The notes: generated by a model from the letters alone, not told the origin. A stretch of DNA of 54,950 nucleotides from Candidatus Woesearchaeota archaeon (GCA_964493885.1 CAZBPV010000001.1:1-54950); one strand, 5' to 3'; positions 3,143 to 39,534 are shown, counted from the stretch's first letter. Program-made: numbers and translations.

Positions 3143-4762
3143 ATGGAACACTTTCCAGAACAATCAGTTAAATTAGCAAGAGAAATAGCAGGCAAATATA
3201 GAAAAAGAACAAGTTCTAAATCAATGCTTGCAGCTTACATTTATAATAACAATTTCTTGCATATTGGATACGGCTTTAGCGAGTCTATAAAAAAAGGCAA
3301 TTGCGGAAGATTTCTTCATGAAATAGACAAAGAAACTGATTGCTTTACAATGGCAGGAGTTTTATATCTTGTTGCAAAAGAAGCAGGACTTAAACCAGAA
3401 CTTTATTATGTGCAGGGAATGAGAGATACTGTTGAAGGAGATAACAGAGAAGAAAGAGGAAGAAATGATCATTCTTTTATTACTGTTAGAACTGGAAAAA
3501 ATGAGCAAGTAGTAATAGATCCATTTATGGAATTATTTGGAGATGTGAAATTTAATAAAAAAAATAACAAGATGAAGGTTTATTTTAAATCTGAGAGGCA
3601 GGTAACAGAAAGGGATTACCAATTAATGATGAAACTATCTGAACAAGAGTATGTTAAAAGATTGCAAAAACAAAGAACTCCTGAAGGAGGAAGAATTGCC
3701 TTGTCTGCTACACAAAGATTATCAAGTTCTTTTGATAATAATGTATATTTGACTTTTTTGTCTGAAGAATCATCTCTTAAATCTTCCCTGCATTTTACTC
3801 CTTCTTTATTTCATCCAGATCCATATAATCAGGCCATAATGTTTGATTTAGTAACAAGAGTCAATAAAGACGGAACTTTTTCTTTTGATGATGGAACTTT
3901 TTTAAATTATAATGCTGAAGCATCAGGATGGACTCAGCATACTAATCCTCAGATTCCTTTTTCTTTTAGTGTAAGGGATGCTCAAAAAATGTTTAAAATA
4001 TTTGATGAATTCATGAGATTAAAAGGGAGAAAATCCCCAATTTCAAGAATGTTTTCATTTAAATTAGCTCATGCTCTTTATTCTGGAGGATTTTATGATG
4101 ATTTTACTACACTTCCAAATACTCTTGCAAGAAAAGTAGTTGCTGGTTCTAAAGATTGGAAAGATATTCTTGGATGGCAAGAACAAATATCACAAAATTT
4201 TGCAAAAAAAGCAAGAGAAGATGAAAGAACTTATAAGACTCTTTTAAGAGAAGCTCATAGAACAAAAAAAGTAGATAAAGCATATTCAAGAAAAAATCCT
4301 CTCGCACTAACTTCAACAGAACATCAAAGAATTAAATTAATAGAAGAAGGATTTGAAAAATACTCTTCTGTATTAAGGGGTGCTGTAGAAACAATAATCC
4401 AAGGGAGAGCAATAGCTTCTGGAATAAAAAAAGGAAGTAAATATCATGCAGAAAGAAAAACCTCTCAAGCTTTAGTAAGAAAAGGTTTGGAAGTTAAGTA
4501 TTTTGAGCAAATGGCTCAGTTTAATGGCTCTTCTTTTCCGTTTGCTTTTCACATAGTTGCAGATAAATCATTGGATTTTAAACAATTTGATTTGCAAAAA
4601 ATGTCTGTTCCAGAATTAAGACAAGGATTAACTCAAAAAGATATTCAGAGAGCTGCCCAAAGATTTTTCTTTTTAAGCATTCTTAATTCATGGCATCTAA
4701 AAGATGCATTATTTTTAAAGCAATATAAACGAGGCTTGGAAAAGATTCTTGATTCCAGATAG
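3143..4762 (+). CDS. Hypothetical protein with N-terminal transglutaminase-like Cys-His-Asp core
   Basis: DCFTMAGVLYLVAKEAGL...NDHSFITV...VVIDPF gives spacing like the transglutaminase/cysteine-protease fold. The rest is unknown. Confidence 0.45.
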   Translation: MEHFPEQSVKLAREIAGKYRKRTSSKSMLAAYIYNNNFLHIGYGFSESIKKGNCGRFLHEIDKETDCFTMAGVLYLVAKEAGLKPELYYVQGMRDTVEGDNREERGRNDHSFITVRTGKNEQVVIDPFMELFGDVKFNKKNNKMKVYFKSERQVTERDYQLMMKLSEQEYVKRLQKQRTPEGGRIALSATQRLSSSFDNNVYLTFLSEESSLKSSLHFTPSLFHPDPYNQAIMFDLVTRVNKDGTFSFDDGTFLNYNAEASGWTQHTNPQIPFSFSVRDAQKMFKIFDEFMRLKGRKSPISRMFSFKLAHALYSGGFYDDFTTLPNTLARKVVAGSKDWKDILGWQEQISQNFAKKAREDERTYKTLLREAHRTKKVDKAYSRKNPLALTSTEHQRIKLIEEGFEKYSSVLRGAVETIIQGRAIASGIKKGSKYHAERKTSQALVRKGLEVKYFEQMAQFNGSSFPFAFHIVADKSLDFKQFDLQKMSVPELRQGLTQKDIQRAAQRFFFLSILNSWHLKDALFLKQYKRGLEKILDSR

Positions 4763-4792
4763 CCTTAAAAACCTATTTTTTATATTTTAATT

Positions 4793-5461
4793 ATGCGTTG
4801 CGGAGTATTATTTTCAGGTGGAAAAGATTCTTGCTATTCAGCATATCTTGCTAAGAATCACGGGAATGAACTAGCTTGCTTAATAACTCTGATTTCTGAA
4901 AACCCTGAATCTTATATGTTTCATACCCCTTCAATCTCTAAAACATCTAAACAAGCAAAAGCAATGAATATTCCTTTATTAATTCATAAGACTAAGGGTG
5001 AAAAAGAAAAAGAACTAAAAGATTTGCAAGATGCAATTAAAATTGCAAAAGATAAATACAAGATTGAGGCAATTGTAACTGGCGCTCTTCACTCTGTTTA
5101 TCAAGCTTCAAGAATACAAAAAATCTGTGATACTCTTGGATTGCAGTGCATCAATCCATTATGGCATAAAGACGAAGTTGCTTATCTTCAGGAATTAATA
5201 GATGATAGATTCAAGGTTATGATAATTGGAGTTTTTGCTTATCCTCTAGATAAATCCTGGCTTGGAAGAATTATAGATACTAAATTTATTGATGATGTTA
5301 AAAAATTAAAAGAAAAATACAAGATTCATGTTGCCGGAGAAGGCGGAGAATTTGAAACTTTTGTTCTGGACTGCCCTCTTTTTAATAAACCCCTTAATCT
5401 TATTAATAAAATAATATCAGGAGAAAAAAATTCCTGGAAAATGGAGATAGAAGTTGAATAA
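4793..5461 (+). CDS. Diphthine-ammonia ligase-like PP-loop ATPase (Dph6/MJ0570 family)
   Basis: PP-loop LFSGGKDS at the N-terminus and C-terminal GEGGEFETFVLDCPLF. Confidence 0.75.
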   Translation: MRCGVLFSGGKDSCYSAYLAKNHGNELACLITLISENPESYMFHTPSISKTSKQAKAMNIPLLIHKTKGEKEKELKDLQDAIKIAKDKYKIEAIVTGALHSVYQASRIQKICDTLGLQCINPLWHKDEVAYLQELIDDRFKVMIIGVFAYPLDKSWLGRIIDTKFIDDVKKLKEKYKIHVAGEGGEFETFVLDCPLFNKPLNLINKIISGEKNSWKMEIEVE

Positions 5462-6210
5462 TGGAAACAGATGAGATACCAAACCTTGAATTAGGACAGC
5501 ATTTTTTAATAGATGAGAGAATACTAGACAAAGAGATAGATGCAGCAAATATTTCTGAAACTGACAAGATAATTGAAATAGGGGCTGGAAAAGGAGAATT
5601 AACAAATCTTTTAGTTAAAAATTCTAAAATTGTTCTTGCTTTTGAAAAAGATTCTTCATTAAAAAGATATCTAGATAAACTTAAGCATAAAAATTTAACA
5701 ATTGTTTATGATGATGCTATGAAATATGATTGGAGAAATTACAATAAAATTGTCTCTAATATCCCGTATTTTTTATCTGGGGATTTAATGCTAAAGGCAA
5801 TAAAAGATAATATACAAGACATTATTATAATTGTTGGAGAAGAGTTTAAAGATAAATTAATTAATAAAAGTGGAAAAATAGGATTTATTGCAAATCTTTT
5901 TTATAATATTATCCCTGTTCTTGAAGTTGATAAAAATAGTTTCTTTCCTATACCAAGAGTTAATTCCTGGCTTATCACACTTCATAAAAAGCAATTAAAT
6001 GATTCTGAAAAATTCCTAATTAATGTAATTAACAGAGAGGGTAAAATAAAAAATTCTATTTTATATGCCTTAGTTAATATAGGAAAAACAAAAAAGCAAG
6101 CAAAAGCAATGATAGACTCAATGGAACTAAGCCAGCAAGTTCTTGAAAAGCCAACAAGCAAATTAACTGAAGCACTTCTTATTAAAATAAAAGAATCATT
6201 AAATCTTTAA
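5461..6210 (+). CDS. rsmA: 16S rRNA (adenine-N6,N6)-dimethyltransferase KsgA/Dim1
   Basis: LGQHFLID, SAM motif IIEIGAGKGELT, and NIPY motif. Confidence 0.8.
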   Translation: METDEIPNLELGQHFLIDERILDKEIDAANISETDKIIEIGAGKGELTNLLVKNSKIVLAFEKDSSLKRYLDKLKHKNLTIVYDDAMKYDWRNYNKIVSNIPYFLSGDLMLKAIKDNIQDIIIIVGEEFKDKLINKSGKIGFIANLFYNIIPVLEVDKNSFFPIPRVNSWLITLHKKQLNDSEKFLINVINREGKIKNSILYALVNIGKTKKQAKAMIDSMELSQQVLEKPTSKLTEALLIKIKESLNL

Positions 6211-7335: not shown

Positions 7336-7354
7336 TTTGCCTCCTTTGATTTCA

Positions 7355-7367
7355 GGGCGAAAGGAGA
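7355..7367 (-). repeat. Third copy of the tRNA-His 3' end (TCTCCTTTCGCCC)
   Basis: Identical to the last 13 nt of the tRNA-His gene. Lies 19 nt upstream of the hisS ATG. Confidence 0.8.
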
Positions 7368-7405
7368 CTGAAATTTTCTATTTCGTACTCCTTTCTTCTT
7401 TATCA

Positions 7406-7431
7406 GGGCGAAAGGAGAGAATTGAACTCTC
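7406..7431 (-). repeat. Second copy of the tRNA-His 3' end (T-arm plus 3' acceptor strand, 26 nt)
   Basis: GAGAGTTCAATTCTCTCCTTTCGCCC is identical to tRNA-His positions 49-73 plus one trailer C (7525-7500). Confidence 0.85.
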
Positions 7432-7499
7432 TTTGTCAAGTTTCTGTCCTTGATAAGTGCAGAGTTGATGTCTCCAAAACCACCCTGTGTTTTGTCGAG

Positions 7500-7571
7500 G
7501 GCGAAAGGAGAGAATTGAACTCTCGTCTGACGAGCCACAGTCGCCTGTTCTACCATTGAACTACATTCGCC
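7500..7571 (-). tRNA. tRNA-His (anticodon GTG) with encoded G-1
   Basis: Hand-folded cloverleaf: G-1 opposite C73; acceptor GCGAATG/CTTTCGC (one U-U at 6:67); D arm GTTC/GAAC; anticodon stem GGCGA/TCGTC; loop CTGTGGC; T arm GAGAG-TTCAATT-CTCTC. No encoded CCA. Confidence 0.9.
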
Positions 7572-7670: not shown

Positions 7671-7684
7671 ATCAGCGTCTAGAG
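7671..7684 (+). repeat. Left flanking direct repeat ATCAGCGTCTAGAG
   Basis: Matches ATCAGCGTAGCTAGAG at 16041-16056 apart from a 2-nt indel. Lies immediately outside the left terminal inverted repeat. Confidence 0.7.
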
Positions 7685-7721
7685 GGCTTTGTTAAATAAA
7701 TAGTGCTTGTTAAATAAGTCT
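7684..7721 (+). repeat. Left terminal inverted repeat of the island (partly duplicated)
   Basis: GGGCTTTGTTAAATAA (7684-7699) and GCTTGTTAAATAAGTCT (7705-7721) both match the reverse complement of 16021-16040. Confidence 0.75.
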
Positions 7722-8064
7722 ATTCTTCTATTTTCATACCCAATTCATTCAATTTTTTTATTATTGCTCTACTTGCTTGAACTCTTTCTTTTCTTTGGTC
7801 GTAAAATGTTTTGGCAGAAAGGACTAAGATAATTAAGGATAAATCAATAAAAACAGAGACCATTAGCCAGTTTAACGTTTGTGCAAAAATTACAATAAAA
7901 ATAGCAAAAATTAAAGAGAAGCTAAAATATATCTTAGAATACATATTTTCTTTAAGAGTTCTTATTTCATCAGAAACGTACCTTAAACTTTGAATATTTA
8001 TATACTTGGCTTGAGCTAATGGGTCTTTTTCAAAATCTATTCTTTCATTATAGAATTTAACCAT
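7720..8064 (-). CDS. Small membrane protein (two predicted TM helices)
   Basis: 114 aa with hydrophobic stretches IYFSFSLIFAIFIVIFA and LMVSVFIDLSLIILVL. Confidence 0.45.
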   Translation of the reverse strand: MVKFYNERIDFEKDPLAQAKYINIQSLRYVSDEIRTLKENMYSKIYFSFSLIFAIFIVIFAQTLNWLMVSVFIDLSLIILVLSAKTFYDQRKERVQASRAIIKKLNELGMKIEE

Positions 8065-8069
8065 AAATA

Positions 8070-8096
8070 ATTATGGTACCGACATATTTATATAGT
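8070..8096 (+). promoter_or_regulatory. TATA-box promoter module, copy 1 of a 27-bp repeat
   Basis: ATTATGGTACCGACATATTTATATAGT, with TTTATATA at 8087-8094, 24 nt before the ATG at 8119 (leaderless geometry). Matches 10611-10637 at 26 of 27 positions. Confidence 0.55.
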
Positions 8097-8118
8097 TTAT
8101 TGTGATTGAGTTTTTATA

Positions 8119-8277
8119 ATGAAAATAATAAAAGTAATGTCAAAAAAGGTGAAGGATAAGGAATATTCAAAATATCTTCTTAATTTGCCTAAGGATGTAG
8201 TTGAAGAATCTAAACTTTTAGGAAAGGATTTGAAAGCTAAAGCAGAGAAAGATAAGATTATTATTGAGAAAGATTAA
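8119..8277 (+). CDS. AbrB/SpoVT-like small DNA-binding protein (52 aa, below the ORF-track cutoff)
   Basis: MKIIKVMSKKVKDKEYSKYLLNLPKDVVEESKLLGKDLKAKAEKDKIIIEKD. The LNLPKDVVE...DKIIIEK pattern resembles a swapped-hairpin AbrB/MazE fold. Confidence 0.5.
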   Translation: MKIIKVMSKKVKDKEYSKYLLNLPKDVVEESKLLGKDLKAKAEKDKIIIEKD

Positions 8278-9350
8278 TTTAGAAGTAATTTAGAAATAAA
8301 AGGATTTTCGGATATAATCGGTTTTTTAAGAATATAATCTTTCATCTTAAAATTTTCTAAAAAAATATTTGTTTGGTTTTGAAGCTCTTTTTTAATTCTA
8401 CTGGAGTTATTTGTTATGTTTATATTTTTAGGTTCAATACTTTCTTGTTCACCAAACTTTTTATAATAATATGTTTGTGCATCAAAGAATCTCGCTTTAT
8501 GTTTCCATATCTCTTTTTGGTCTATTTTTTCTGTTTTTACATTTGGATTAAATCTTTGGGGTTCACGATTGATTCCAATAATACTTGCCCCCCCTATGCT
8601 TGAAAGTATGTCTGAAGAAGGAGTGTTTTGGCTTTTTATATTTGATAGAATTTCTCTTTTTATGTTTGTAAAATAGAATATAGACTCTCTAAAAACATCT
8701 TTTGAATCAAGAAGTCTTCTAATTCTTCTTATTCTTGCAGAAGTACTTTTGTTTATGGGTTTTCCCTCAAAGTCAAACCAGATATAATGATACCCTTTTT
8801 TTATGTAATGTTCAACAAGAGTGTTTATTCCCTCCATAGATAATCTCATGGATATAGGAACAAAGATTGGTTTTGAATTCATTTCTTTAAAAAAGTCATA
8901 GCAGTAATCAATAAATTTTATATAATCCTCTAAGGAAATTATTTTTTTAGTTATATTTGGAATAATTAGTATATCCTTAGAATGACTATAAAGATATTCT
9001 AAAAATGAATCTAAAGTCATGTTATCCTGTTCGGATAAGGGATTAAAGCGAAATGTTAAACTTACTATATTAAAGAACTCTGAAGCCCATTTCTTATCTT
9101 GGAAAAAATTGTCTATCCTCTTATCATCTTCAGAAGATACAATACTTTTTATTTGAGAGAAGTCCTTTATGTACTTTGAAATTTCAATTATCTCTTTTTT
9201 ATTGGATAAATTAACAAAACTTTTATTCAAAAATTTTATATCAAATGTCTTTTCTGGCATATCAAATGTCTTATTGCCTATCTTAAACCTCTTAATATTA
9301 AATTGGCTGGTTTTATCTGGAATGTACTCTTTTATGTTTATTTCTGACAT
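8274..9350 (-). CDS. Hypothetical 358-aa protein, last gene of the four-gene operon
   Basis: The start overlaps the PIN-like gene by 13 nt. Alternating hydrophobic strands and helices (IFVPISM, YIWFDFEG, SIFYFTNI, ASIIGIN) suggest an alpha/beta fold. No motif recognised. Confidence 0.6.
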   Translation of the reverse strand: MSEINIKEYIPDKTSQFNIKRFKIGNKTFDMPEKTFDIKFLNKSFVNLSNKKEIIEISKYIKDFSQIKSIVSSEDDKRIDNFFQDKKWASEFFNIVSLTFRFNPLSEQDNMTLDSFLEYLYSHSKDILIIPNITKKIISLEDYIKFIDYCYDFFKEMNSKPIFVPISMRLSMEGINTLVEHYIKKGYHYIWFDFEGKPINKSTSARIRRIRRLLDSKDVFRESIFYFTNIKREILSNIKSQNTPSSDILSSIGGASIIGINREPQRFNPNVKTEKIDQKEIWKHKARFFDAQTYYYKKFGEQESIEPKNINITNNSSRIKKELQNQTNIFLENFKMKDYILKKPIISENPFISKLLLN

Positions 9351-9883
9351 ATTTCCTTTCTTAATTCATTTAATATTTCTACTTTTATTCTGAAATTTGA
9401 TTTCTCAATATCATCATACAAATTAAGAGTTTCATTCTTATTAAATATTTTGTAATTTAAACAACATTTTTTAATGAAAGTAACAGTTCCAAAAAGGTGG
9501 GAACTTAGCTCTATTAAATTTCTTTCTATGAACTTTCTTGGTTTACTATCATCAATTATAATAAAGAAATCTTTTTCTTTTGATAGATTATAAACAAAAT
9601 AAGCAGTAATAATTATATCATATTCCCCTCTTTTTATTTCCTGTTTTGACAAAAAAGGTTGTATTGGTTTTCCAATATCAAAAGAGGGAACAAAAAAAGT
9701 ATTAAGATTTTTATGGTTTGATATTTTTCTCCAATTTTTTGAATCTTTTATCTCCTCGGAAACCTTGGGAGGAATATGTGTTTTAAAGTTGTCAAGAATC
9801 CTAATCAAGTAGTCAGATTTATTTATACAGTCAAGAAAACAAATATAGAAACTTGAATCAGCCACTAATTCGTTTAGCACCAC
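9338..9883 (-). CDS. PIN-like (DUF3368-type) putative nuclease toxin
   Basis: N-terminal ADSSFYICF, then KRGEYDIIITA and IIIDDSKPRKFIE...GTVTFI. Resembles the D/E/D arrangement and the GE..DD..R..GT pattern of PIN_3 proteins. Confidence 0.5.
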   Translation of the reverse strand: MVLNELVADSSFYICFLDCINKSDYLIRILDNFKTHIPPKVSEEIKDSKNWRKISNHKNLNTFFVPSFDIGKPIQPFLSKQEIKRGEYDIIITAYFVYNLSKEKDFFIIIDDSKPRKFIERNLIELSSHLFGTVTFIKKCCLNYKIFNKNETLNLYDDIEKSNFRIKVEILNELRKEICQK

Positions 9884-10392
9884 TTTAATTCCTCTGCTTT
9901 CTCTTCACTAATTAAACCTTTTTTTAGAAGGTTCTTAATAATCTTTAATTTGATTTCATTATTAAATAGAAATTTACATCTATTTGATTTTTCCATAAAC
10001 TCGGGATAAGAACAATAAATAATAAAAAGTAATTCATCTTCTTCAAGTTTTTCATATACTTCCCTAATAAATTTAATTAAGACTAATGATTCTTTTTTCT
10101 CTTTAAGGGAAATTTCTTTAAACTGCTCCTTTCCTTTTTCTGATAATAAAAATTTGTTGCCCATCTTTGAAAAAGAATTTTCAAAATATAGGGGGTCATC
10201 TAATGAATCGTGAATAACCTCTGAAAAAGGACCTTGATAATGTTTTTTAAAATCAAAGAGAACTTCTAATTCTTTCAAAGTTCTTGTCAGTAAGAAAAGT
10301 TCCTTTTGAATAAAAAGTTCATCAATTGGTTTTTCTTGCAAACCTAATAATAAAATTAACTTTTTTTCAGCTTCCTCAATTTCATCATTCAT
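9874..10392 (-). CDS. Panacea/YwgA-like putative antitoxin or adaptor
   Basis: IQKELFLL...FDFKKHYQGPFSEVIHDSLD resembles the QK..Y...F.F....GP(Y/F)S motif of DUF4065-type proteins. Overlaps the PIN-like gene by 10 nt. Confidence 0.4.
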   Translation of the reverse strand: MNDEIEEAEKKLILLLGLQEKPIDELFIQKELFLLTRTLKELEVLFDFKKHYQGPFSEVIHDSLDDPLYFENSFSKMGNKFLLSEKGKEQFKEISLKEKKESLVLIKFIREVYEKLEEDELLFIIYCSYPEFMEKSNRCKFLFNNEIKLKIIKNLLKKGLISEEKAEELKWC

Positions 10393-10396
10393 TTTT

Positions 10397-10549
10397 TTAT
10401 TTTAATTGCAATTTATTTGAAAATAACCAAGCATGGATTATTTCTTTTATAAGCTTTGATTTATCCATATCATACTTTTTAACTGCTTGTTCCCAGAGTT
10501 TCCAATCCTCATCTTCTAAGTATGCTACTATTCTCTTTGTTGATGACAT
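10397..10549 (-). CDS. Ribbon-helix-helix (CopG-like) protein (50 aa, below the ORF-track cutoff)
   Basis: MSSTKRIVAYLEDEDWKLWEQAVKKYDMDKSKLIKEIIHAWLFSNKLQLK shows a beta-strand/helix/helix pattern. Its stop is 4 nt before the next gene's ATG. Confidence 0.55.
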   Translation of the reverse strand: MSSTKRIVAYLEDEDWKLWEQAVKKYDMDKSKLIKEIIHAWLFSNKLQLK

Positions 10550-10562
10550 TCTTTAAGCATTA

Positions 10563-10596
10563 AAGTGTGCTACACTTATGTTTAAGAGTGTGCTAC
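10563..10596. promoter_or_regulatory. Candidate operator of the RHH operon
   Basis: Perfect palindrome AAGTGT-GCT-ACACTT (10563-10577). AGTGTGCTAC is repeated at 10587-10596, 23 bp apart, between a minus-strand TATA-like box (10597-10606) and the RHH ATG. Confidence 0.45.
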
Positions 10597-10610
10597 TATT
10601 TATAAAGATT

Positions 10611-10637
10611 ATTATGGTACCGAAATATTTATATAGT
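10611..10637 (+). promoter_or_regulatory. TATA-box promoter module, copy 2 of the 27-bp repeat
   Basis: ATTATGGTACCGAAATATTTATATAGT, with TTTATATA at 10628-10635, 21 nt before the transposase ATG at 10657. Confidence 0.55.
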
Positions 10638-10656
10638 GGTGGTACCTGAATTATCT

Positions 10657-11880
10657 ATGGAAACAAATTGGAAGAAATTAACAAGATATAAGCGAGGGAG
10701 ATTAATCTCTAAAGACTTAAAAATAGAGAAAGTTGAGGATAAATGGAAGGTTCCTTCTCAATCTGGAAAAGGGTTTTACTATGTTCACTTTGATGGACAT
10801 AGACCAAAATGCAACTGTCTGGATTGTAGAATAAGACATGGAAGATGCAAACACATAATCGCTGTAGAATTATCTATTCAAGAGAAGATAGACATAGATG
10901 GAACCATCTCTCAAATAAAGAGAGTAAGAATCGGATATGCCCAAAATTGGAAAGCTTATGATAAATCTCAAACAAATGAAAAATTATTCTTTCTAAGACT
11001 CTTAAGGGATTTATGTACAAATATTGAACAACCAGTGTATAAGTTTGGAAGACCAAACTTTCCTTTTTCAGAAATGGTTTTCAATTCGGTCCTTAAGATT
11101 TATTCAACTTTCTCATTAAGAAGATTTATGTCGGATATGAAAATTGCAAAACAGATGGGCTTAATTGAAAATTTATGCACATATCCAACAATTAGCAATT
11201 TTATGCAGAAAAAAGAACTAACCAGAGTTTTGAAATCTTTAATTAAATTGAGTTCAAGTCCATTAAGTTCTGTTGAAACATCTTTTGCAGTAGACAGCTC
11301 TGGTTTTTCTACTTGTAGATTCGCAAGATGGTTTGATGAAAAATGGGGAAAAGAAAAGAAGTATAAAATTTGGCTAAAGGCACATTTAATTTCAGGAATC
11401 AAAACAAATATTGTCACTGCTGTAGAAATTACAGAAGGAAAAGTGAACGATAGTCCTCAACTAAATAAACTTGTTAATGAAACAGCTAAGCAATTTAGTG
11501 TAGGTGAAGTTAGTTGTGACAAAGCTTACAGTTCAAGAAAGAACTTAGAGCTTATTCATAATGTAGGTGCTGTTCCCTACATCCCATTCAAAAAGAATGC
11601 AACTGGAAAATCCAGAGGTTCATGTGTTTGGAGTAAAATGTACTATTACTTCATGTATAAGCATGATGAATTTCAAGAACATTATCATAAAAGGAGTAAT
11701 GCTGAAACAGTTTTCCATATGATTAAAACAAAATTTAGAGATAATCTAAGGAGTAAAACAAAAACTGCTCAAGTTAATGAACTTCTCTGTAAGGTTCTTT
11801 GCCACAATTTATGTGTTATAATTCAAGAGATTAATGAATTGGGAATTAGGGGGAAGTTTGTTGTAGAGGAGAGAAAATGA
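10657..11880 (+). CDS. DDE transposase (IS4/IS5-like) with N-terminal SWIM zinc finger
   Basis: SWIM CNCLDC...CKH. DDE candidates are AVDSSGF, SCDKAYSS and YHKRSNAETVF (a Y-x2-R-x3-E motif). The ORF track opens at a GTG at 10636. Confidence 0.75.
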   Translation: METNWKKLTRYKRGRLISKDLKIEKVEDKWKVPSQSGKGFYYVHFDGHRPKCNCLDCRIRHGRCKHIIAVELSIQEKIDIDGTISQIKRVRIGYAQNWKAYDKSQTNEKLFFLRLLRDLCTNIEQPVYKFGRPNFPFSEMVFNSVLKIYSTFSLRRFMSDMKIAKQMGLIENLCTYPTISNFMQKKELTRVLKSLIKLSSSPLSSVETSFAVDSSGFSTCRFARWFDEKWGKEKKYKIWLKAHLISGIKTNIVTAVEITEGKVNDSPQLNKLVNETAKQFSVGEVSCDKAYSSRKNLELIHNVGAVPYIPFKKNATGKSRGSCVWSKMYYYFMYKHDEFQEHYHKRSNAETVFHMIKTKFRDNLRSKTKTAQVNELLCKVLCHNLCVIIQEINELGIRGKFVVEERK

Positions 11881-11942
11881 GTAAAAAATATAAAACGGCA
11901 AATTTAAATAGTCCTAATTCTTATAAAAGGAAAGGAGAAAAG

Positions 11943-13928
11943 ATGGCGGTTGAAAGAAAGAATGAGGCAAAAAAAGATATTATTCTATATAACTTCTTAA
12001 AAGATAATAGAAAATATAAAAATTCTTGGGATATAAAAAAAACAAATAATAATATCATTCAATCTATTTTGGATAAAGCAAGTAAAAGAAAAACGGATAA
12101 AAGAGGAGAACCAGATTTACTCTATATTGATGAATCGCATAAATTGTTAATTTTACTTGAAAATAAAGATAGTATAAAACAACATCAATCTAAAGAAGGA
12201 AACAATGTTGAAGGTTATGCTGTTGACGGAGTAAAACATTATTTATCTTTTTTTACAGAAAATTATATTGAAACATTACCTTCTCCGAATAAAAAATATT
12301 TAAAAAATTGGAAAATTGTTGGAATAGCAGTTTCAGGAAATATATTGGACTTGTATAATCATCTTATTTCTACATTTATCATAAATAAGAGTGAAATAAA
12401 AGATATTGAAACAAAAGAAATTTTGAACGAAGAAGATTATCTTTCTCTTTTTGAAAATGTAGATATGGAAAAACTAATAAGAGAAGTATCAGAATCTTCT
12501 AAAAGAATAAATAATAAATTACGTTCTTTAGATTCGCAAAAGAGACCCGTGTTACTTAGTGGATTGATGATTTGTTTATTCACAAGAGATGGAAGAAATG
12601 ATTTTAAGGAGGGATATATGGGTTGGGAGGTTAAAACAGTTATAAATAATATTCCTACTACAATCAATCAAATTTTAAAAAAAGAAGGAATACCTAAGGA
12701 TAAAATAGAAGTGTTAACTAATGAACTATCATTTATTAAAACTGACCAAGATTTAAATAACACAGAAATCTTAAAAGAAATATTAGAGGAATTAGATAAA
12801 AATGTTATCCCCCTATTTACCAAAGAAACTAATTATGATATTTTGGGAAAATTTTATGAGGAATTTCTGAGATATGCTGGAATAAGTAACGTTAAGAACG
12901 GAATAATTTTGACTCCGAGCCATATAACTAAGCTTTTTACTGAATTAGTAGATATAAAAAACAATGATGTAATATTAGACACTTGTTGTGGAACTGGAAC
13001 ATTTTTAATATCTTCTATGAATAAACTATTCTTTGAAATAAATAAATCTAATATAAGGAACAAGGTAGACCTAATTAAAAATATAAAAGAAAAACAACTT
13101 ATAGGTTTTGAAAAAAGTTCTACTATGTATGCTCTTGCTATCTCAAATATGTTATTTAGAGGCGATGGAAAATCAAAAGTATTTAACGTAGATTCTTTCT
13201 CAGATGAAGCAAAGAATATACTAAATAATTTAAAAAAAGAAGGGATAGTACCAACAATTGGATTCATAAATCCTCCTTATGGGGGACAGGATAATAAGGA
13301 TAAACCCACCAAAAAAGAAATTCAATTTTTAGAGAATATGTTAGATTCAGTTAGCAGATTTGGAGTAATAATTGCTCCCCTTTCTACGTATATAAAAGAA
13401 GAGTCAGTTAGAGAAAGGATATTATCCAAACATACTTTAAAATGTGTTATAAATATGCCAAAAGAATTATTTCAACCAAATGCTTCAGCTCATACTGCAG
13501 TTGCAGTTTTTGAAACAAATAAACCCCACAATAACAAAGAAGTCGTATTTTATGATTTAAAAGAGGATGGTCTTATTTTATCTAAGAACAGAGGAAGAAC
13601 AGATGCCTTAAACAAATGGGGAGGAATAAAGAAAAAGTTATTTGAAGAATTAAATAATCCTGATAAGTTTAGTGATGGGTTTCATTTATTAAAAACTACT
13701 ATAACTGGAGAAGATGAATGGATAATCCAAGCCCATAGCCAAACGGATTATCATAATTTAAATGATGAATCTTTTACTAAGAGTATAAAAGAATATACAA
13801 TCTTCTCAACAAAAGTTAAATTGGGATTATTGGATAAAGATATAGACGAACTAACTCTTTTAGAAATATTAAATGAAAATAATATCTCTGCGGAGGAGGT
13901 ATTGAATGAAAGTGATTCCTCAAACTAA
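11943..13928 (+). CDS. BcgI-like (type IIB/IIG) restriction-modification subunit: N-terminal PD-ExK nuclease fused to an N6-adenine methyltransferase
   Basis: GEPDLLYID...LLILLENK (PD...ExK), SAM motif ILDTCCGTGTF, and catalytic NPPYGG. The ORF opens at 11877, but GGAGA precedes the ATG at 11943. Confidence 0.65.
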   Translation: MAVERKNEAKKDIILYNFLKDNRKYKNSWDIKKTNNNIIQSILDKASKRKTDKRGEPDLLYIDESHKLLILLENKDSIKQHQSKEGNNVEGYAVDGVKHYLSFFTENYIETLPSPNKKYLKNWKIVGIAVSGNILDLYNHLISTFIINKSEIKDIETKEILNEEDYLSLFENVDMEKLIREVSESSKRINNKLRSLDSQKRPVLLSGLMICLFTRDGRNDFKEGYMGWEVKTVINNIPTTINQILKKEGIPKDKIEVLTNELSFIKTDQDLNNTEILKEILEELDKNVIPLFTKETNYDILGKFYEEFLRYAGISNVKNGIILTPSHITKLFTELVDIKNNDVILDTCCGTGTFLISSMNKLFFEINKSNIRNKVDLIKNIKEKQLIGFEKSSTMYALAISNMLFRGDGKSKVFNVDSFSDEAKNILNNLKKEGIVPTIGFINPPYGGQDNKDKPTKKEIQFLENMLDSVSRFGVIIAPLSTYIKEESVRERILSKHTLKCVINMPKELFQPNASAHTAVAVFETNKPHNNKEVVFYDLKEDGLILSKNRGRTDALNKWGGIKKKLFEELNNPDKFSDGFHLLKTTITGEDEWIIQAHSQTDYHNLNDESFTKSIKEYTIFSTKVKLGLLDKDIDELTLLEILNENNISAEEVLNESDSSN

Positions 13929-14895
13929 ATGGGAATGGTTTGATATTACTTCTCTTTTCAAAATTGAAAAAGGAGAAAGATTAGTAAAAACCGATAGGAT
14001 AGATGGAGAAGTTCCATTAATTACTGCCTCTTCTAAGAATAATGGAATTGTGGATTTCTTGTCTAAAGAGGTCTTTAAAGAAAAAAAGAAAACTTTTGAT
14101 AATAAAATAACTATTGATATGTTCTTTAATACATTCTATCAGGACGAAGAGTATTTTAGTGATGACAATGTCCATACATTAATCCCTCTGTTTAATAAAA
14201 ATAATTTATACATAATGTTGTTTCTCCTAACAATTTTAAGACAATCTGCTTATAAGTATGGCTATGGGAGGCAATTGAGAATAAAGAGATTAGAATTGGA
14301 AAAAATTAAACTCCCTGCTGACGAAGAAGGAAATCCAGACTGGAAGTTTATGGAGAAGTACATGAGAGAACTTTCCAAGAAGGTTTATTTTGATAAAAAA
14401 GTTAAAAAAGTAAGCTTAAGGAAAGTAGAAACTAAAAATTGGGGGAAATTTGTAATAGGGGCACTATTTAAAAATAATTTTAAAAGGGGGATGAGATTAA
14501 TTGAGATTGATAGAACTAAAGGGGATATTCAATATTACTCTGCTTCAAGTAAAAATAATGGTTTAACTGATATGATTGCAAATCCCATTTTTATAGAAAA
14601 AGATGCACTCATATATTCCACATTTGGGGATTCCTTTTATGTTGAAGGAGAATTTACTGCAAGTGATGAAATAACTATTTTGAAACATCCAGAGATGAAC
14701 AAATATAATGGTCTTTTTATAGCAACAATTCTTAAAGAAAATAAATATAAATATGGCTTTGGGAGAAAAGCATTTTTGAATAAATTATTAAAAGATACAA
14801 TTAAACTCCCTGCTGACGAAGAAGGAAATCCAGACTGGAAGTTTATGGAGAAGTACATTAAATCATTACCTTATTCCAAAACATTGGAGAATTAA
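13906..14895 (+). CDS. Restriction-modification specificity (HsdS/BcgIB-like) subunit with two target-recognition domains
   Basis: Two halves each carry ...ASSKNNG... and end in IKLPADEEGNPDWKFMEKY. Overlaps the upstream gene by 23 nt. Confidence 0.75.
   Translation: MKVIPQTKWEWFDITSLFKIEKGERLVKTDRIDGEVPLITASSKNNGIVDFLSKEVFKEKKKTFDNKITIDMFFNTFYQDEEYFSDDNVHTLIPLFNKNNLYIMLFLLTILRQSAYKYGYGRQLRIKRLELEKIKLPADEEGNPDWKFMEKYMRELSKKVYFDKKVKKVSLRKVETKNWGKFVIGALFKNNFKRGMRLIEIDRTKGDIQYYSASSKNNGLTDMIANPIFIEKDALIYSTFGDSFYVEGEFTASDEITILKHPEMNKYNGLFIATILKENKYKYGFGRKAFLNKLLKDTIKLPADEEGNPDWKFMEKYIKSLPYSKTLEN
14304..14363 (+). repeat. 60-bp perfect internal direct repeat of the S gene, copy 1
   Basis: AATTAAACTCCCTGCTGACGAAGAAGGAAATCCAGACTGGAAGTTTATGGAGAAGTACAT is identical to 14799-14858. 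Confidence 0.9.
14799..14858 (+). repeat. 60-bp perfect internal direct repeat of the S gene, copy 2
   Basis: Identical to 14304-14363. Encodes the conserved spacer helices of the S subunit. Confidence 0.9.
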
Positions 14896-14924
14896 AATGA
14901 TAACCTTCAAACTCATAAAATAAA

Positions 14925-15500
14925 ATGGTAGACATCATAACAATAATACTTATCATAGTCCTTCTGGTGGGTTTGTTTATTGCTTATAGGATTGGACATA
15001 AAGCAGGGGCTTTTAAAAGAGATATATTCTGGGAAGGAGAATTGCCTAATTACAGAAAAGATGCTATCATGAAATCCAGAGCAGTATTAGGAGGACAATT
15101 CTCAGAACAGTTAGCTCCTTATCTTCCTAATTTTGATTATTTACCCACTGAATGTAGATTCATTGGGAAACCCATAGATTTTATTGTCTTCAAGGGAATG
15201 GATGATAAAGACATTAATGAAGTTGTGTTTGTTGAAGTAAAAAGTGGAAATGCTAAATTAAATCAACATGAAAAGAATCTTAAAGAAACTATAGACAAAA
15301 AGAGAGTCAAATGGGTTGAATACAGAATACCTGAAGAATTGCACAGTAATAAAACAGAACTTGGAGATAAAATTTCTAATGTGGTAAACGGAATAGAAGA
15401 GGATGTTAAGAAGTTTTTATGTGAATCTTGTGGAAGAGCAATCAAACATAAAGGAAAATGCTTTGCTTGTAATATTAAGGCTAAAAAAGAAAGAAAATGA
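14925..15500 (+). CDS. Membrane-anchored endonuclease related to archaeal Holliday junction resolvase (COG4741/Endonuc_Holl-like) with C-terminal zinc ribbon
   Basis: N-terminal TM helix, then SRAVLGGQFSEQLAPYLPNF...FIGKPIDFIVF...VVFVEVKSGNAKL, and C-terminal CESCG...CFAC. Confidence 0.55.
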   Translation: MVDIITIILIIVLLVGLFIAYRIGHKAGAFKRDIFWEGELPNYRKDAIMKSRAVLGGQFSEQLAPYLPNFDYLPTECRFIGKPIDFIVFKGMDDKDINEVVFVEVKSGNAKLNQHEKNLKETIDKKRVKWVEYRIPEELHSNKTELGDKISNVVNGIEEDVKKFLCESCGRAIKHKGKCFACNIKAKKERK

Positions 15501-15991
15501 AAGACGGAAAACCAGATAACAATAATATAGGAAATACTGGAGAGTATTTTATTGCATCCATTCTTTCTTCAAAGGGGTATATAACCACCATAACACTTGG
15601 TCGTGCTGAAGCATATGATATAATTGCAATAAGACCTGATGGAAAAACAATCAAAATTCAAGTTAAAACTGCATGGTATGATAATAAGATATTTAGGCTG
15701 TCTCCAAAGGATGCTGAGGAAAGAAATTTGGAATATTTCTATGCTTTTGTTACATTAAAAGAGAATAAATCTCCTTGGGAATATTATATTGTTCCTGCAG
15801 AAATAGTTTCTAAACATGTTGGTGAAGGGCATAATATTTGGTTAAATTCTCTTGGAAAAAAAGGGCAGAAACATAATGATAGTTTAGTTAGAACATTTAG
15901 TTCAAAAATAGGCAAATGTAGTCCAAAGTGGTTTACTCAAGAGTTAGTAGATTCTTTTAAGAATAATATACATGCTTTAGAAAAAGATTAA
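15497..15991 (+). CDS. PD-(D/E)XK-like nuclease-fold protein
   Basis: GNTGEYFIASILSSKGY...AYDIIAIRPDGKTIKIQVKT shows an E...D...QxK pattern. ATGA overlap with the upstream gene. Confidence 0.4.
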   Translation: MKDGKPDNNNIGNTGEYFIASILSSKGYITTITLGRAEAYDIIAIRPDGKTIKIQVKTAWYDNKIFRLSPKDAEERNLEYFYAFVTLKENKSPWEYYIVPAEIVSKHVGEGHNIWLNSLGKKGQKHNDSLVRTFSSKIGKCSPKWFTQELVDSFKNNIHALEKD

Positions 15992-39429: not shown

Positions 39430-39534
39430 GCGCTTGTAGTTCAGTGGTAGAATCTCTCGTTGCCATGGCAGGATTTATCATGACATTCTGCTTGCAGAAA
39501 CGAGGTGACTCGGGTTCGAATCCCGACAGGCGCA
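39430..39534 (+). tRNA. tRNA-Gly (anticodon GCC) with a 34-nt intron at the canonical 37/38 position
   Basis: Acceptor GCGCTTG/CAGGCGC; anticodon stem TCTCG/CGAGG; loop TTGCCA[intron 39466-39499]A; T arm TCGGG-TTCGAAT-CCCGA. Confidence 0.85.

Follow-up and report, generated by a model that had tools for sequence, protein, structure and literature searches.

A mobile three-gene cassette of archaea that joins a PIN-like nuclease to an antitoxin-like protein and a predicted TIM-barrel protein: a candidate toxin-antitoxin or defence module

PIN-domain proteins of the COG2405 type have antitoxin partners of their own: the UPF0175 (COG2886) family, which pairs exclusively with them (PMC5499597) and is predicted to consist of helix-turn-helix (HTH) antitoxins (PMC2701414). 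PDC-S70, a candidate defence protein with a PIN domain, ranks among the commonest archaea-enriched defence candidates in a recent census (PMC12988326). Here we describe a locus whose closest known kind, judged by sequence, is the UPF0175/COG2405-PIN pair (PDC-S70). It lies in a stretch of 54,950 nucleotides (nt) from a Candidatus Woesearchaeota archaeon (GCA_964493885.1 CAZBPV010000001.1:1-54950), and we refer to the whole of that stretch as the window. The locus contains three genes, here called A, B and C, for an antitoxin-like protein, a PIN-like nuclease and a large protein predicted to be a TIM barrel. These three genes are the conserved unit, and together they form a mobile cassette that recurs intact in ~40 archaeal lineages and on one viral contig. 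Their features, with lengths in amino acids (aa), are as follows.

9874-10392, minus strand: gene A, 172 aa, antitoxin-like, with a putative N-terminal winged helix resembling Panacea and the DarG C-terminal domain (CTD), the motif FDFKKHYQGPFS and a UPF0175-like tail
9338-9883, minus strand: gene B, 181 aa, PIN-like nuclease of apparent COG2405/DUF3368 type, with a match to PDC-S70
8274-9350, minus strand: gene C, 358 aa, basic protein predicted to fold as a TIM barrel, with an N-terminal beta-sheet and a C-terminal helical extension; the invariable third component

A sequence-only reading of the window had described four packed minus-strand open reading frames (ORFs) at this position, and their coordinates proved exact: a gene for a 50-aa protein is followed after a 4-nt gap by A, A and B overlap by 10 nt, and B, which begins at a GTG codon, overlaps C by 13 nt. 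From their sequences the packed genes A, B and C are clearly real, beyond anything expected by chance, because all three proteins have strong homologues (E-values from 1e-29 to 1e-170) in dozens of other loci.

Other copies were sought in one genome per species. The 185,579 species genomes scanned yielded 42 loci with C; loci (cited below by number) were gathered through C, except for L053 and L054, which were gathered through A. The proposal that the genes form a module in other archaea also is borne out strictly for A-B-C: hidden Markov models (HMMs) of A and B place both genes directly upstream of C in 37 of the 42 genome loci, across many archaeal phyla. The module had, however, been drawn with four genes, and the fourth does not belong to it: the small gene upstream of A falls outside the conserved core and occupies a variable slot. 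Five loci depart from the rule: L049 lies at a contig edge, L039 is degenerate and sits at the end of its contig, and L012, L044 and L048 hold remnants or pseudogenes of C. Copies of C that stand without A and B are damaged. L012 (4037-5023) holds an N-terminally truncated 328-aa ORF beside which a convergent 52-aa gene, described below, has been kept; in Cenarchaeum (L044, 3665-5218) and in a member of the Nitrosopumilaceae (L048, 4049-4615) C is split or fragmentary. Such lone copies fit decay after loss of the partner genes.

The order A, B, C is the same in every distant context examined, and six of these contexts present a one-strand triplet of ~180 aa, ~180 aa and ~390 aa, the last being C. 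Removal of duplicates left 39 distinct cassettes, whose junctions were measured with longest-ORF start calls. A and B overlap by 1-29 nt in all but one of them. Between B and C there is anything from an overlap of 35 nt to a gap of 12 nt, the decayed copy in L046 excepted. The pairwise-identity matrices of the three proteins are correlated (Mantel r 0.77-0.82, p<=5e-4), which argues that the genes are inherited and transferred as a unit; over 36 triplets the mean pairwise identity is 41% for A, 35% for B and 38% for C. No A-B cassette without C occurs among the sampled loci, which were collected via C or A, C-less pairs not having been searched for directly.

The neighbourhoods of the cassette are unrelated between loci, and include a ribosomal protein operon, an integrase together with Cdc6, and metabolic or housekeeping genes. 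One copy, at ~1.755 Mb of CP006670.1, comes from Thermococcus litoralis DSM 5473, which is in culture; in a divergent branch C has 450 aa and the cassette adjoins an integrase. In Methanogenium marinum (L054, JAKELO010000002.1 1-8783) A-B-C is inserted in a type I restriction-modification (R-M) locus, between hsdR plus an nSTAND3/Mrr_cat gene on one side and hsdS on the other; L050 (Methanomicrobiaceae) appears to have a similar layout, by gene order only. Embedding inside an R-M locus is the arrangement by which PADLOC defence candidates get nominated. The viral copy (L055) is on the IMG/VR contig IMGVR_UViG_3300002733_000190, where a divergent cassette with proteins of 207 (A), 184 (B) and 403 aa (C) spans 3782-6149, 1.6 kb from a gene (7757-8371) that by eye resembles a terminase large subunit. 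A tblastn search with C against the catalogued plasmids and phages of PLSDB and INPHARED returned no copy. In the window the G+C content falls to 25-26% across the cassette (8-10 kb), against ~31% elsewhere. We found no description of the A-B-C three-gene module in the literature, and a search with the locus tags of the T. litoralis cassette gave no mention.

The reading of B as a PIN-like nuclease of COG2405/DUF3368 type is supported by sequence comparison at the level of the family. B in the window matches the PADLOC profile PDC-S70 with an E-value of 5.1e-6 over profile positions 4-156 of 161, and 32 of the 38 members of the B family match it too (best 5.2e-10); these are HMM matches, made without PADLOC's system-calling thresholds. 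Twelve of the 38 match Pfam DUF3368 (PF11848; best 8.1e-5), two match PIN and one PIN_12. Precomputed DUF3368 hits on B homologues are marked as weak, with the exception of one unmarked hit on a distant homologue, and a PDB sequence-profile search with all 38 sequences returned nothing. E44 and D111 are the same in all 38 sequences, D9 and E87 in >=90% of them, and the spacing of the four is typical of PIN domains; the fourth canonical PIN Asp is not conserved in the family. COG2405 PINs commonly retain 2-5 active-site residues (PMC5499597). The earlier call of a DUF3368-type PIN is thus supported for the family, but not, by Pfam, for the copy in the window.

A looks like a two-part antitoxin, in which a Panacea/DarG-CTD-like domain is followed by a UPF0175-like tail, because the family that the tail resembles is the one that pairs with COG2405 PINs. 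The PADLOC profiles matched by A are PDC-M19A (7e-9) and DarG (5.3e-4; C-terminal half, profile positions 175-269). When the A family profile is compared with the PDB, the top match is 7yk3_B, the DarG C-terminal domain (E 0.8), on the motif F..KH.YGPYS. The AlphaFold2 model of A (pLDDT 93.8) leads Foldseek to the same structure, with 7yk3_D and 7yk3_B at the top (probability 0.99 and 0.96; TM 0.44-0.49; E 0.05) and generic MarR/PadR winged helices behind them. Homologues of A carry the names DUF4065 domain-containing, Antitoxin SocA-like Panacea domain, or YwgA in UniRef and JGI, which suggests that other pipelines do assign DUF4065 to them. The Panacea call that had been made for A draws on these names and on the weak DarG-CTD matches, but finds no echo in the Pfam DUF4065 model; it had also missed the tail. 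There, UPF0175 (PF03683) matches the last ~35 residues of distant A-family members with E-values from 1e-5 to 1.5e-6. One member, P0325, scores 28.2 bits against a gathering cut-off of 27.9, closer members reach only E ~0.2, and A of the window has no match. The window's A, an acidic protein (isoelectric point, pI, 5.2), has no significant Pfam match and no macrodomain match. It lies within 100 nt of the putative toxin gene B, as do its relatives, which overlap B in nearly all 39 cassettes, and this architecture is kept across species.

C belongs to a family without annotation. All of its 122 homologues are labelled hypothetical and none has a Pfam domain; those from named organisms are almost all archaeal, with hosts among Pacearchaeota, Woesearchaeota, Bathyarchaeia, Nitrososphaeria, Archaeoglobi, Thermococci, Promethearchaeota and Jordarchaeum. 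An exhaustive profile search recovered 317 representative clusters among 1.84 billion protein representatives. C itself has no match in Pfam, NCBIfam, PADLOC, PHROG or the PDB sequence profiles, and ten divergent relatives likewise have no Pfam domain. The sequence-only reading could place no motif in this protein; that remains so at the level of families, yet its fold can be predicted. The AlphaFold2 model (pLDDT 91.3, pTM 0.91) is a confident prediction of a TIM barrel: it has eight beta/alpha units, with a sheet of four strands at the N-terminus and a bundle of helices at the C-terminus. Foldseek against the PDB returned TIM barrels only. tRNA-guanine transglycosylases (TGTs) lead (E 1.2e-5, TM 0.40-0.56), with DHODH, GH5 mannanases, PcrB and Cap10 as close runners-up, and in the viral structures of BFVD a GH5 comes first and phage TGTs are weaker.

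By sequence, C was rejected as a TGT homologue: hhalign gave 0.3% probability against a TGT from L013, and there was no match to Pfam PF01702. The comparator is a bona fide-looking TGT gene (by eye) of a Nanoarchaeota locus, L013 1404-2621 on the minus strand, which lies divergently beside the cassette; this adjacency was seen once and is probably a coincidence. The invariant and near-invariant columns of C contain no Cys, H284 is the only conserved His, and there is no zinc Cys/His cluster. TIM-barrel enzymes have their active site at the C-terminal ends of the barrel strands. It is at or just after these ends that we infer, from the secondary-structure string of the model, the invariant or near-invariant polar residues of C to lie (S167, D193, E195, T228, N229, R232, E233, S246, D247 and N261). 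The family is basic, with a median pI of 9.1 and a median charge of +10.

How far does the cassette resemble systems already described? With the UPF0175/COG2405-DUF3368 PIN pairs it shares a nuclease that matches PDC-S70, a family that is partly DUF3368, an antitoxin-like protein with a UPF0175-like end, an antitoxin-like gene in first place, overlapping ORFs and enrichment in archaea. It differs in that A is ~100 residues longer, carrying the N-terminal Panacea/DarG-CTD-like domain, and in that a third, large TIM-barrel gene is obligatory. PDC-S70, moreover, is catalogued as a single-gene candidate, whereas the cassette from which it came had two families; in the literature on PDC-S70 we found no link to the C family.

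DarG inhibits the toxin DarT by binding it through its C-terminal domain. This domain (PDB 7yk3) is the top fold and PDB profile match to A and has the same GPYS motif, and the PADLOC DarG match falls on the same region; however, the TM score is only 0.44-0.49, the E-values of the fold and sequence matches are weak, A has no macrodomain, B and C have no DarT match, and the cassette lacks a DarT-like ADP-ribosyltransferase. With neither macrodomain nor DarT, the cassette was excluded as a DarTG system. Set beside the TGT superfamily (TGT, DpdA and Cap10 of CBASS), C is comparable in size, has the basic charge that a nucleic-acid enzyme would be expected to have, and is predicted to combine a TIM barrel with a beta-sheet at the N-terminus, but it has no sequence similarity to these proteins and no zinc Cys/His cluster, and a C-terminal helical bundle takes the place of the zinc subdomain. 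TGT-like barrels do serve in defence systems, as DpdA and Cap10 illustrate.

Systems with additional components offer further parallels. PrrC resides in the type I R-M system EcoprrI, much as the M. marinum module is nested in a type I R-M locus and the cassette in the window lies beside hsdM/hsdS-like genes; tripartite toxin-antitoxin (TA) systems (TAC, paaR-paaA-parE, PIN+HTH+DUF955) likewise have more than two components. In both cases the components are unrelated to A, B and C, and the cassette encodes neither a chaperone nor a protease nor an ABC ATPase. Three-component COG2405 systems are known in which the partners are an HTH protein and a DUF955 protease, an arrangement unlike A-B-C (PMC5499597). 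PanAT systems (PMC8832971) resemble the cassette in having a winged-helix antitoxin-like domain with the pattern hydrophobic-K-x-hydrophobic ... G-P-x-S, as in A, encoded directly 5' of a putative toxin. They differ in that the Pfam DUF4065 model matches none of 19 A-family members and in that the third gene of the cassette is invariable, whereas in the TA-like loci of the Panacea survey third genes are rare, inconsistent and mostly dispensable accessories (PMC8832971). The part of the survey's supplementary files that was accessible contains no entry for Thermococcus, Methanogenium, PIN or DUF3368 (PMC8832971). The traits of TA systems that can be seen in the cassette itself are a compact operon, an antitoxin-like gene in first place, overlapping ORFs and a patchy, mobile distribution.

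Around the core lie small genes, a putative control region and a transposase, with the following positions.

10397-10549, minus strand: small upstream gene, 50 aa, presumed DNA-binding autoregulator with a ribbon-helix-helix (RHH)-like pattern recognised by eye
8119-8277, plus strand: convergent gene, 52 aa, whose stop codon overlaps that of C; kept in a DPANN sub-branch
10564-10606, minus strand: promoter/operator-like region, with a TTTATAAA box and two GTAGCACACT repeats
10636-11880, plus strand: DDE transposase, DDE_Tnp_1 plus a SWIM-like finger (Pfam 3.5e-22), divergent from the operon
8067-8096 and 10608-10637, plus strand: 30-nt direct repeat, 28 of 30 positions identical

A variable regulator slot is typical of TA operons. 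Upstream of A the slot is filled by RHH-like, AbrB/MazE-like or DUF2080-like genes and is empty in about half of the cassettes; small genes 5' of A in other loci match MazE_antitoxin (5.8e-4 and 7.8e-3) and DUF2080 (6.1e-6), the latter a 'putative transposon-encoded protein' in its Pfam description. For the 50-aa protein of the window a homologue was found only in L011, at the same position (E 5e-23). It has a beta-alpha-alpha, RHH-like pattern by eye only; no RHH profile matches it, the one Pfam hit (DUF6694, E 0.009) is below threshold, and the earlier call of a CopG-type RHH protein is left with no profile support in the window. Its positional counterpart in L029 matches ParG at 0.041 and has, by phmmer, no similarity to it. 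The 52-aa gene on the other side had been described as AbrB-like and converging on the operon with overlapping stop codons. The convergence and the overlap are real, 2 nt (8275-8276) being common to both stop codons, but the AbrB label has no profile support: the window's protein matches no AbrB/MazE-type or other profile. Its K-K-V-K-D...LPK pattern resembles, by eye only, the DUF2080/MazE-like genes found 5' of A elsewhere. Homologues are present at the same position in the DPANN loci L011, L012, L023 and L029 (E 1e-15 to 3e-17).

Upstream of the ATG of the 50-aa gene (at 10549) the minus strand has a TTTATAAA box (10606-10599) and, between box and ATG, two perfect copies of GTAGCACACT (10596-10587 and 10573-10564) that are 23 nt apart from start to start. 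What had been read as a palindromic operator-like site is, strictly, this pair of direct copies; only the second is part of an imperfect palindrome, AGTGTAGCACACT. The 10-mer occurs at these two sites and nowhere else in the window (0 expected from shuffles). L011, a related locus, has kept both copies while the spacer that separates them has changed, which amounts to a small phylogenetic footprint.

The position of the cassette near R-M genes, a transposase and two nucleases had been noticed earlier and is confirmed in the window: its neighbours are the DDE transposase, an N6 methyltransferase, an HsdS-type specificity subunit, Endonuc_Holl and PDDEXK_5, and tRNA-His with HisRS lies on the other side. 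Homologues of the transposase take the same divergent position in four further DPANN loci (L011 1456-2700, L023 1430-2677, L024 1221-2204 and L029 1631-2644); outside this sub-branch the cassette is found without it. L023 and the window share 81% identity in the transposase DNA and 75% in the 52-aa gene, but only ~40% in the C protein, L023 having a very different A-B-C allele. This pattern suggests either a transposase-linked framework in which cassettes have been exchanged, or repeated insertion beside such cassettes.

The 30-nt direct repeat flanks the five-gene unit, with 0 such repeats expected by chance. It contains GGTACC and a TTTATATA box, and each copy is situated ~30 nt 5' of a plus-strand ATG, that of the 52-aa gene in one case and Met8 of the transposase in the other. 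In L011 only the copy on the transposase side was detected, with 3 mismatches. From its sequence and position the repeat could be a shared TATA/promoter/operator element or the end of a mobile element. A composite transposon from ~7680 to ~11900, and an insertion sequence around the transposase, were considered and rejected, as neither has convincing terminal inverted repeats.

If the roles suggested by these comparisons are correct, the operon would be transcribed from the TTTATAAA box and repressed via the two GTAGCACACT repeats by the 50-aa protein, possibly with A. A would be made first, and its UPF0175-like tail would neutralise B, because no antitoxin family other than UPF0175 is known to pair with COG2405 PINs; the protein's acidic, Panacea-like half might restrain C, by analogy with the restraint of DarT by the DarG C-terminal domain. 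B would be an RNase and C a second nucleic-acid-directed enzyme, which would either act as a co-effector or bring substrate to B. Were A lost, titrated or degraded, B and C would be released; infection by a virus, disappearance of the element and a block of the neighbouring R-M system are possible triggers. The siting beside or inside R-M genes (in the window, in M. marinum and possibly in L050) invites, by analogy, a PrrC-like back-up role. A module of this kind, as its sequences read, would probably serve defence (abortive infection) or addiction.

That there is a conserved, mobile three-gene module is far better supported than the roles assigned to its members. That A-B-C is a mobile three-component TA or defence module is, on present sequence comparisons, the best of the readings considered here, though one for which and against which we would argue with equal readiness. 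The more specific version, in which C is a new TGT-like nucleic-acid TIM-barrel effector (possibly base-excising or base-exchanging) and A a dual antitoxin that restrains B with its tail and C with its Panacea half, seems to us unlikely. In favour of the general reading, the sequence-only claim of a TA-like or defence module that fits no named system survived the tests that were named as able to refute it: homology of the 358-aa protein to a housekeeping enzyme was sought in Pfam, NCBIfam and the PDB profiles and none was found, the co-occurrence is strict, and what profiles and folds show leans towards, not against, the PIN and Panacea-like calls. Several observations weigh on the other side. 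B of the window has no Pfam PIN or DUF3368 match even at E<=10, and the Pfam DUF4065 model (PF13274) matches 0 of 19 A-family members at thresholds from E<=1 to 10. The DarG-like evidence for A consists of three weak, mutually agreeing sequence and model matches, with no single strong one. Of the three proteins A is the best conserved, as a labile antitoxin seldom is, and this would suit a subunit with a structural or regulatory task; TA pairs usually show the opposite pattern, the antitoxin not being the more conserved partner. The TIM-barrel match of the C model is not specific (DHODH, GH5 and TGT score alike, TM ~0.4-0.46), so that the link of C to nucleic acids rests on net charge and a nonspecific fold match. 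Finally, no Rosetta-stone fusion among A, B and C occurs in the 333 collected proteins, and hence none that links A to C.

Three other accounts deserve consideration. C might be no more than a passenger, cargo stabilised by an ordinary two-gene TA pair of UPF0175 type and COG2405 PIN (the PDC-S70 kind). The UPF0175-like tail of A and the COG2405-like B do make up that known two-gene pairing, and mostly dispensable third genes are what the Panacea survey would lead one to expect (PMC8832971). We nonetheless consider this account unlikely: C is never found intact without A and B, nor A-B without C in the loci collected via C or A; it overlaps or abuts B, co-evolves with A and B and is conserved about as they are, while being the largest protein of the cassette; and the ~100 residues by which A exceeds a plain UPF0175 antitoxin would be a whole extra domain without a partner. 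No more probable is a complex for RNA or DNA processing or modification outside any conflict, for example a TGT-like base-exchange or glycosylase enzyme acting, in some archaea, with a PIN endonuclease and a winged-helix adaptor or regulator in tRNA or rRNA maturation or repair. TGTs are the best structural matches to the basic C, the high conservation of A is unlike that of typical antitoxins, and PIN domains serve in RNA maturation too (PMC5499597). Such a complex is, however, hard to reconcile with a distribution as patchy as 42 loci in 185,579 species genomes, or 317 clusters in 1.84 billion representatives, with unrelated neighbourhoods that often adjoin integrases, transposases or R-M genes, or with pseudogenised copies and a copy on a viral contig, and C has neither a sequence relation to TGT nor the conserved Cys/His zinc cluster.

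The third account is confined to the DPANN sub-branch and is compatible with a three-component TA or defence module: there, the cassette would above all be a maintenance (addiction) or regulatory module of a transposase-bearing mobile element, and less a host defence. The same divergent transposase accompanies it in the window and in L011, L023, L024 and L029; L023 has kept the transposase and the 52-aa gene around its very different allele; the 30-nt repeat flanks the five-gene unit; and the DUF2080 matches 5' of A elsewhere point the same way. Against this stand the cassettes outside the sub-branch, which lack this transposase, the failure to find terminal inverted repeats of a composite element and the second copy of the 30-nt repeat that was not found in L011. 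The account would moreover explain linkage and not biochemistry, and we regard it as quite improbable.

Whichever function applies, one distinct branch of PDC-S70-like PINs is always accompanied by an antitoxin-like protein of apparently two domains and by an unclassified, predicted TIM barrel, and the thing to clone and test is three genes, not one. C adds an unannotated protein family with a confidently predicted fold and conserved, active-site-like residues, and the cassette offers a specific example of a single antitoxin that may hold two different enzymes in check. Little has been characterised of immunity and TA biology in archaea; were the dual-antitoxin reading true, the cassette would be a tripartite TA or defence system almost confined to archaea, and part of what is catalogued in archaea as single-gene PDC-S70 would be a three-protein machine. 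Its presence in a cultured, genetically approachable lineage (T. litoralis DSM 5473) and in M. marinum makes the hypothesis directly testable.

Other observations concern the surroundings of the cassette. The R-M-like cluster beyond the transposase (11877-15991) encodes a 683-aa N6 methyltransferase with an N-terminal extension of ~320 residues, a 329-aa HsdS-type protein, a 191-aa Endonuc_Holl and a 164-aa PDDEXK_5 protein. It has no recognisable HsdR, and may be an atypical restriction system with split nucleases. On the other side, a stretch of ~40 nt, GGGCTTTGTTAAATAAATAGTGCTTGTTAAATAAGTC, with an internal TTGTTAAATAA repeat, lies at 7680-7722, just past the stop codon of an ORF for a 114-aa membrane protein. 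It is 83-89% identical in L011 (5574-5614) and L023 (5657-5694), where the surrounding DNA is not, and could from this pattern serve as a terminator or binding site, or mark the end of an element.

Still farther out, the 3' end of the tRNA-His gene (7499-7570) is repeated as a perfect 27-nt copy at 7405-7431, 93 nt downstream of the tRNA, and as a third, shorter and partial copy ~50 nt farther on, at 7353-7367. These copies look like leftover attachment sites from integrations at tRNA-His. As an attachment site for the island that holds the cassette, tRNA-His was ruled out: the duplicated 3' end is on the far side of the tRNA, away from the island, and so does not bound it. A fourth tRNA, 105 nt long, was recognised by Rfam at 39430-39534, between tRNA-Val and tRNA-Gly; it was not reported by ARAGORN and is presumably an intron-containing archaeal tRNA.

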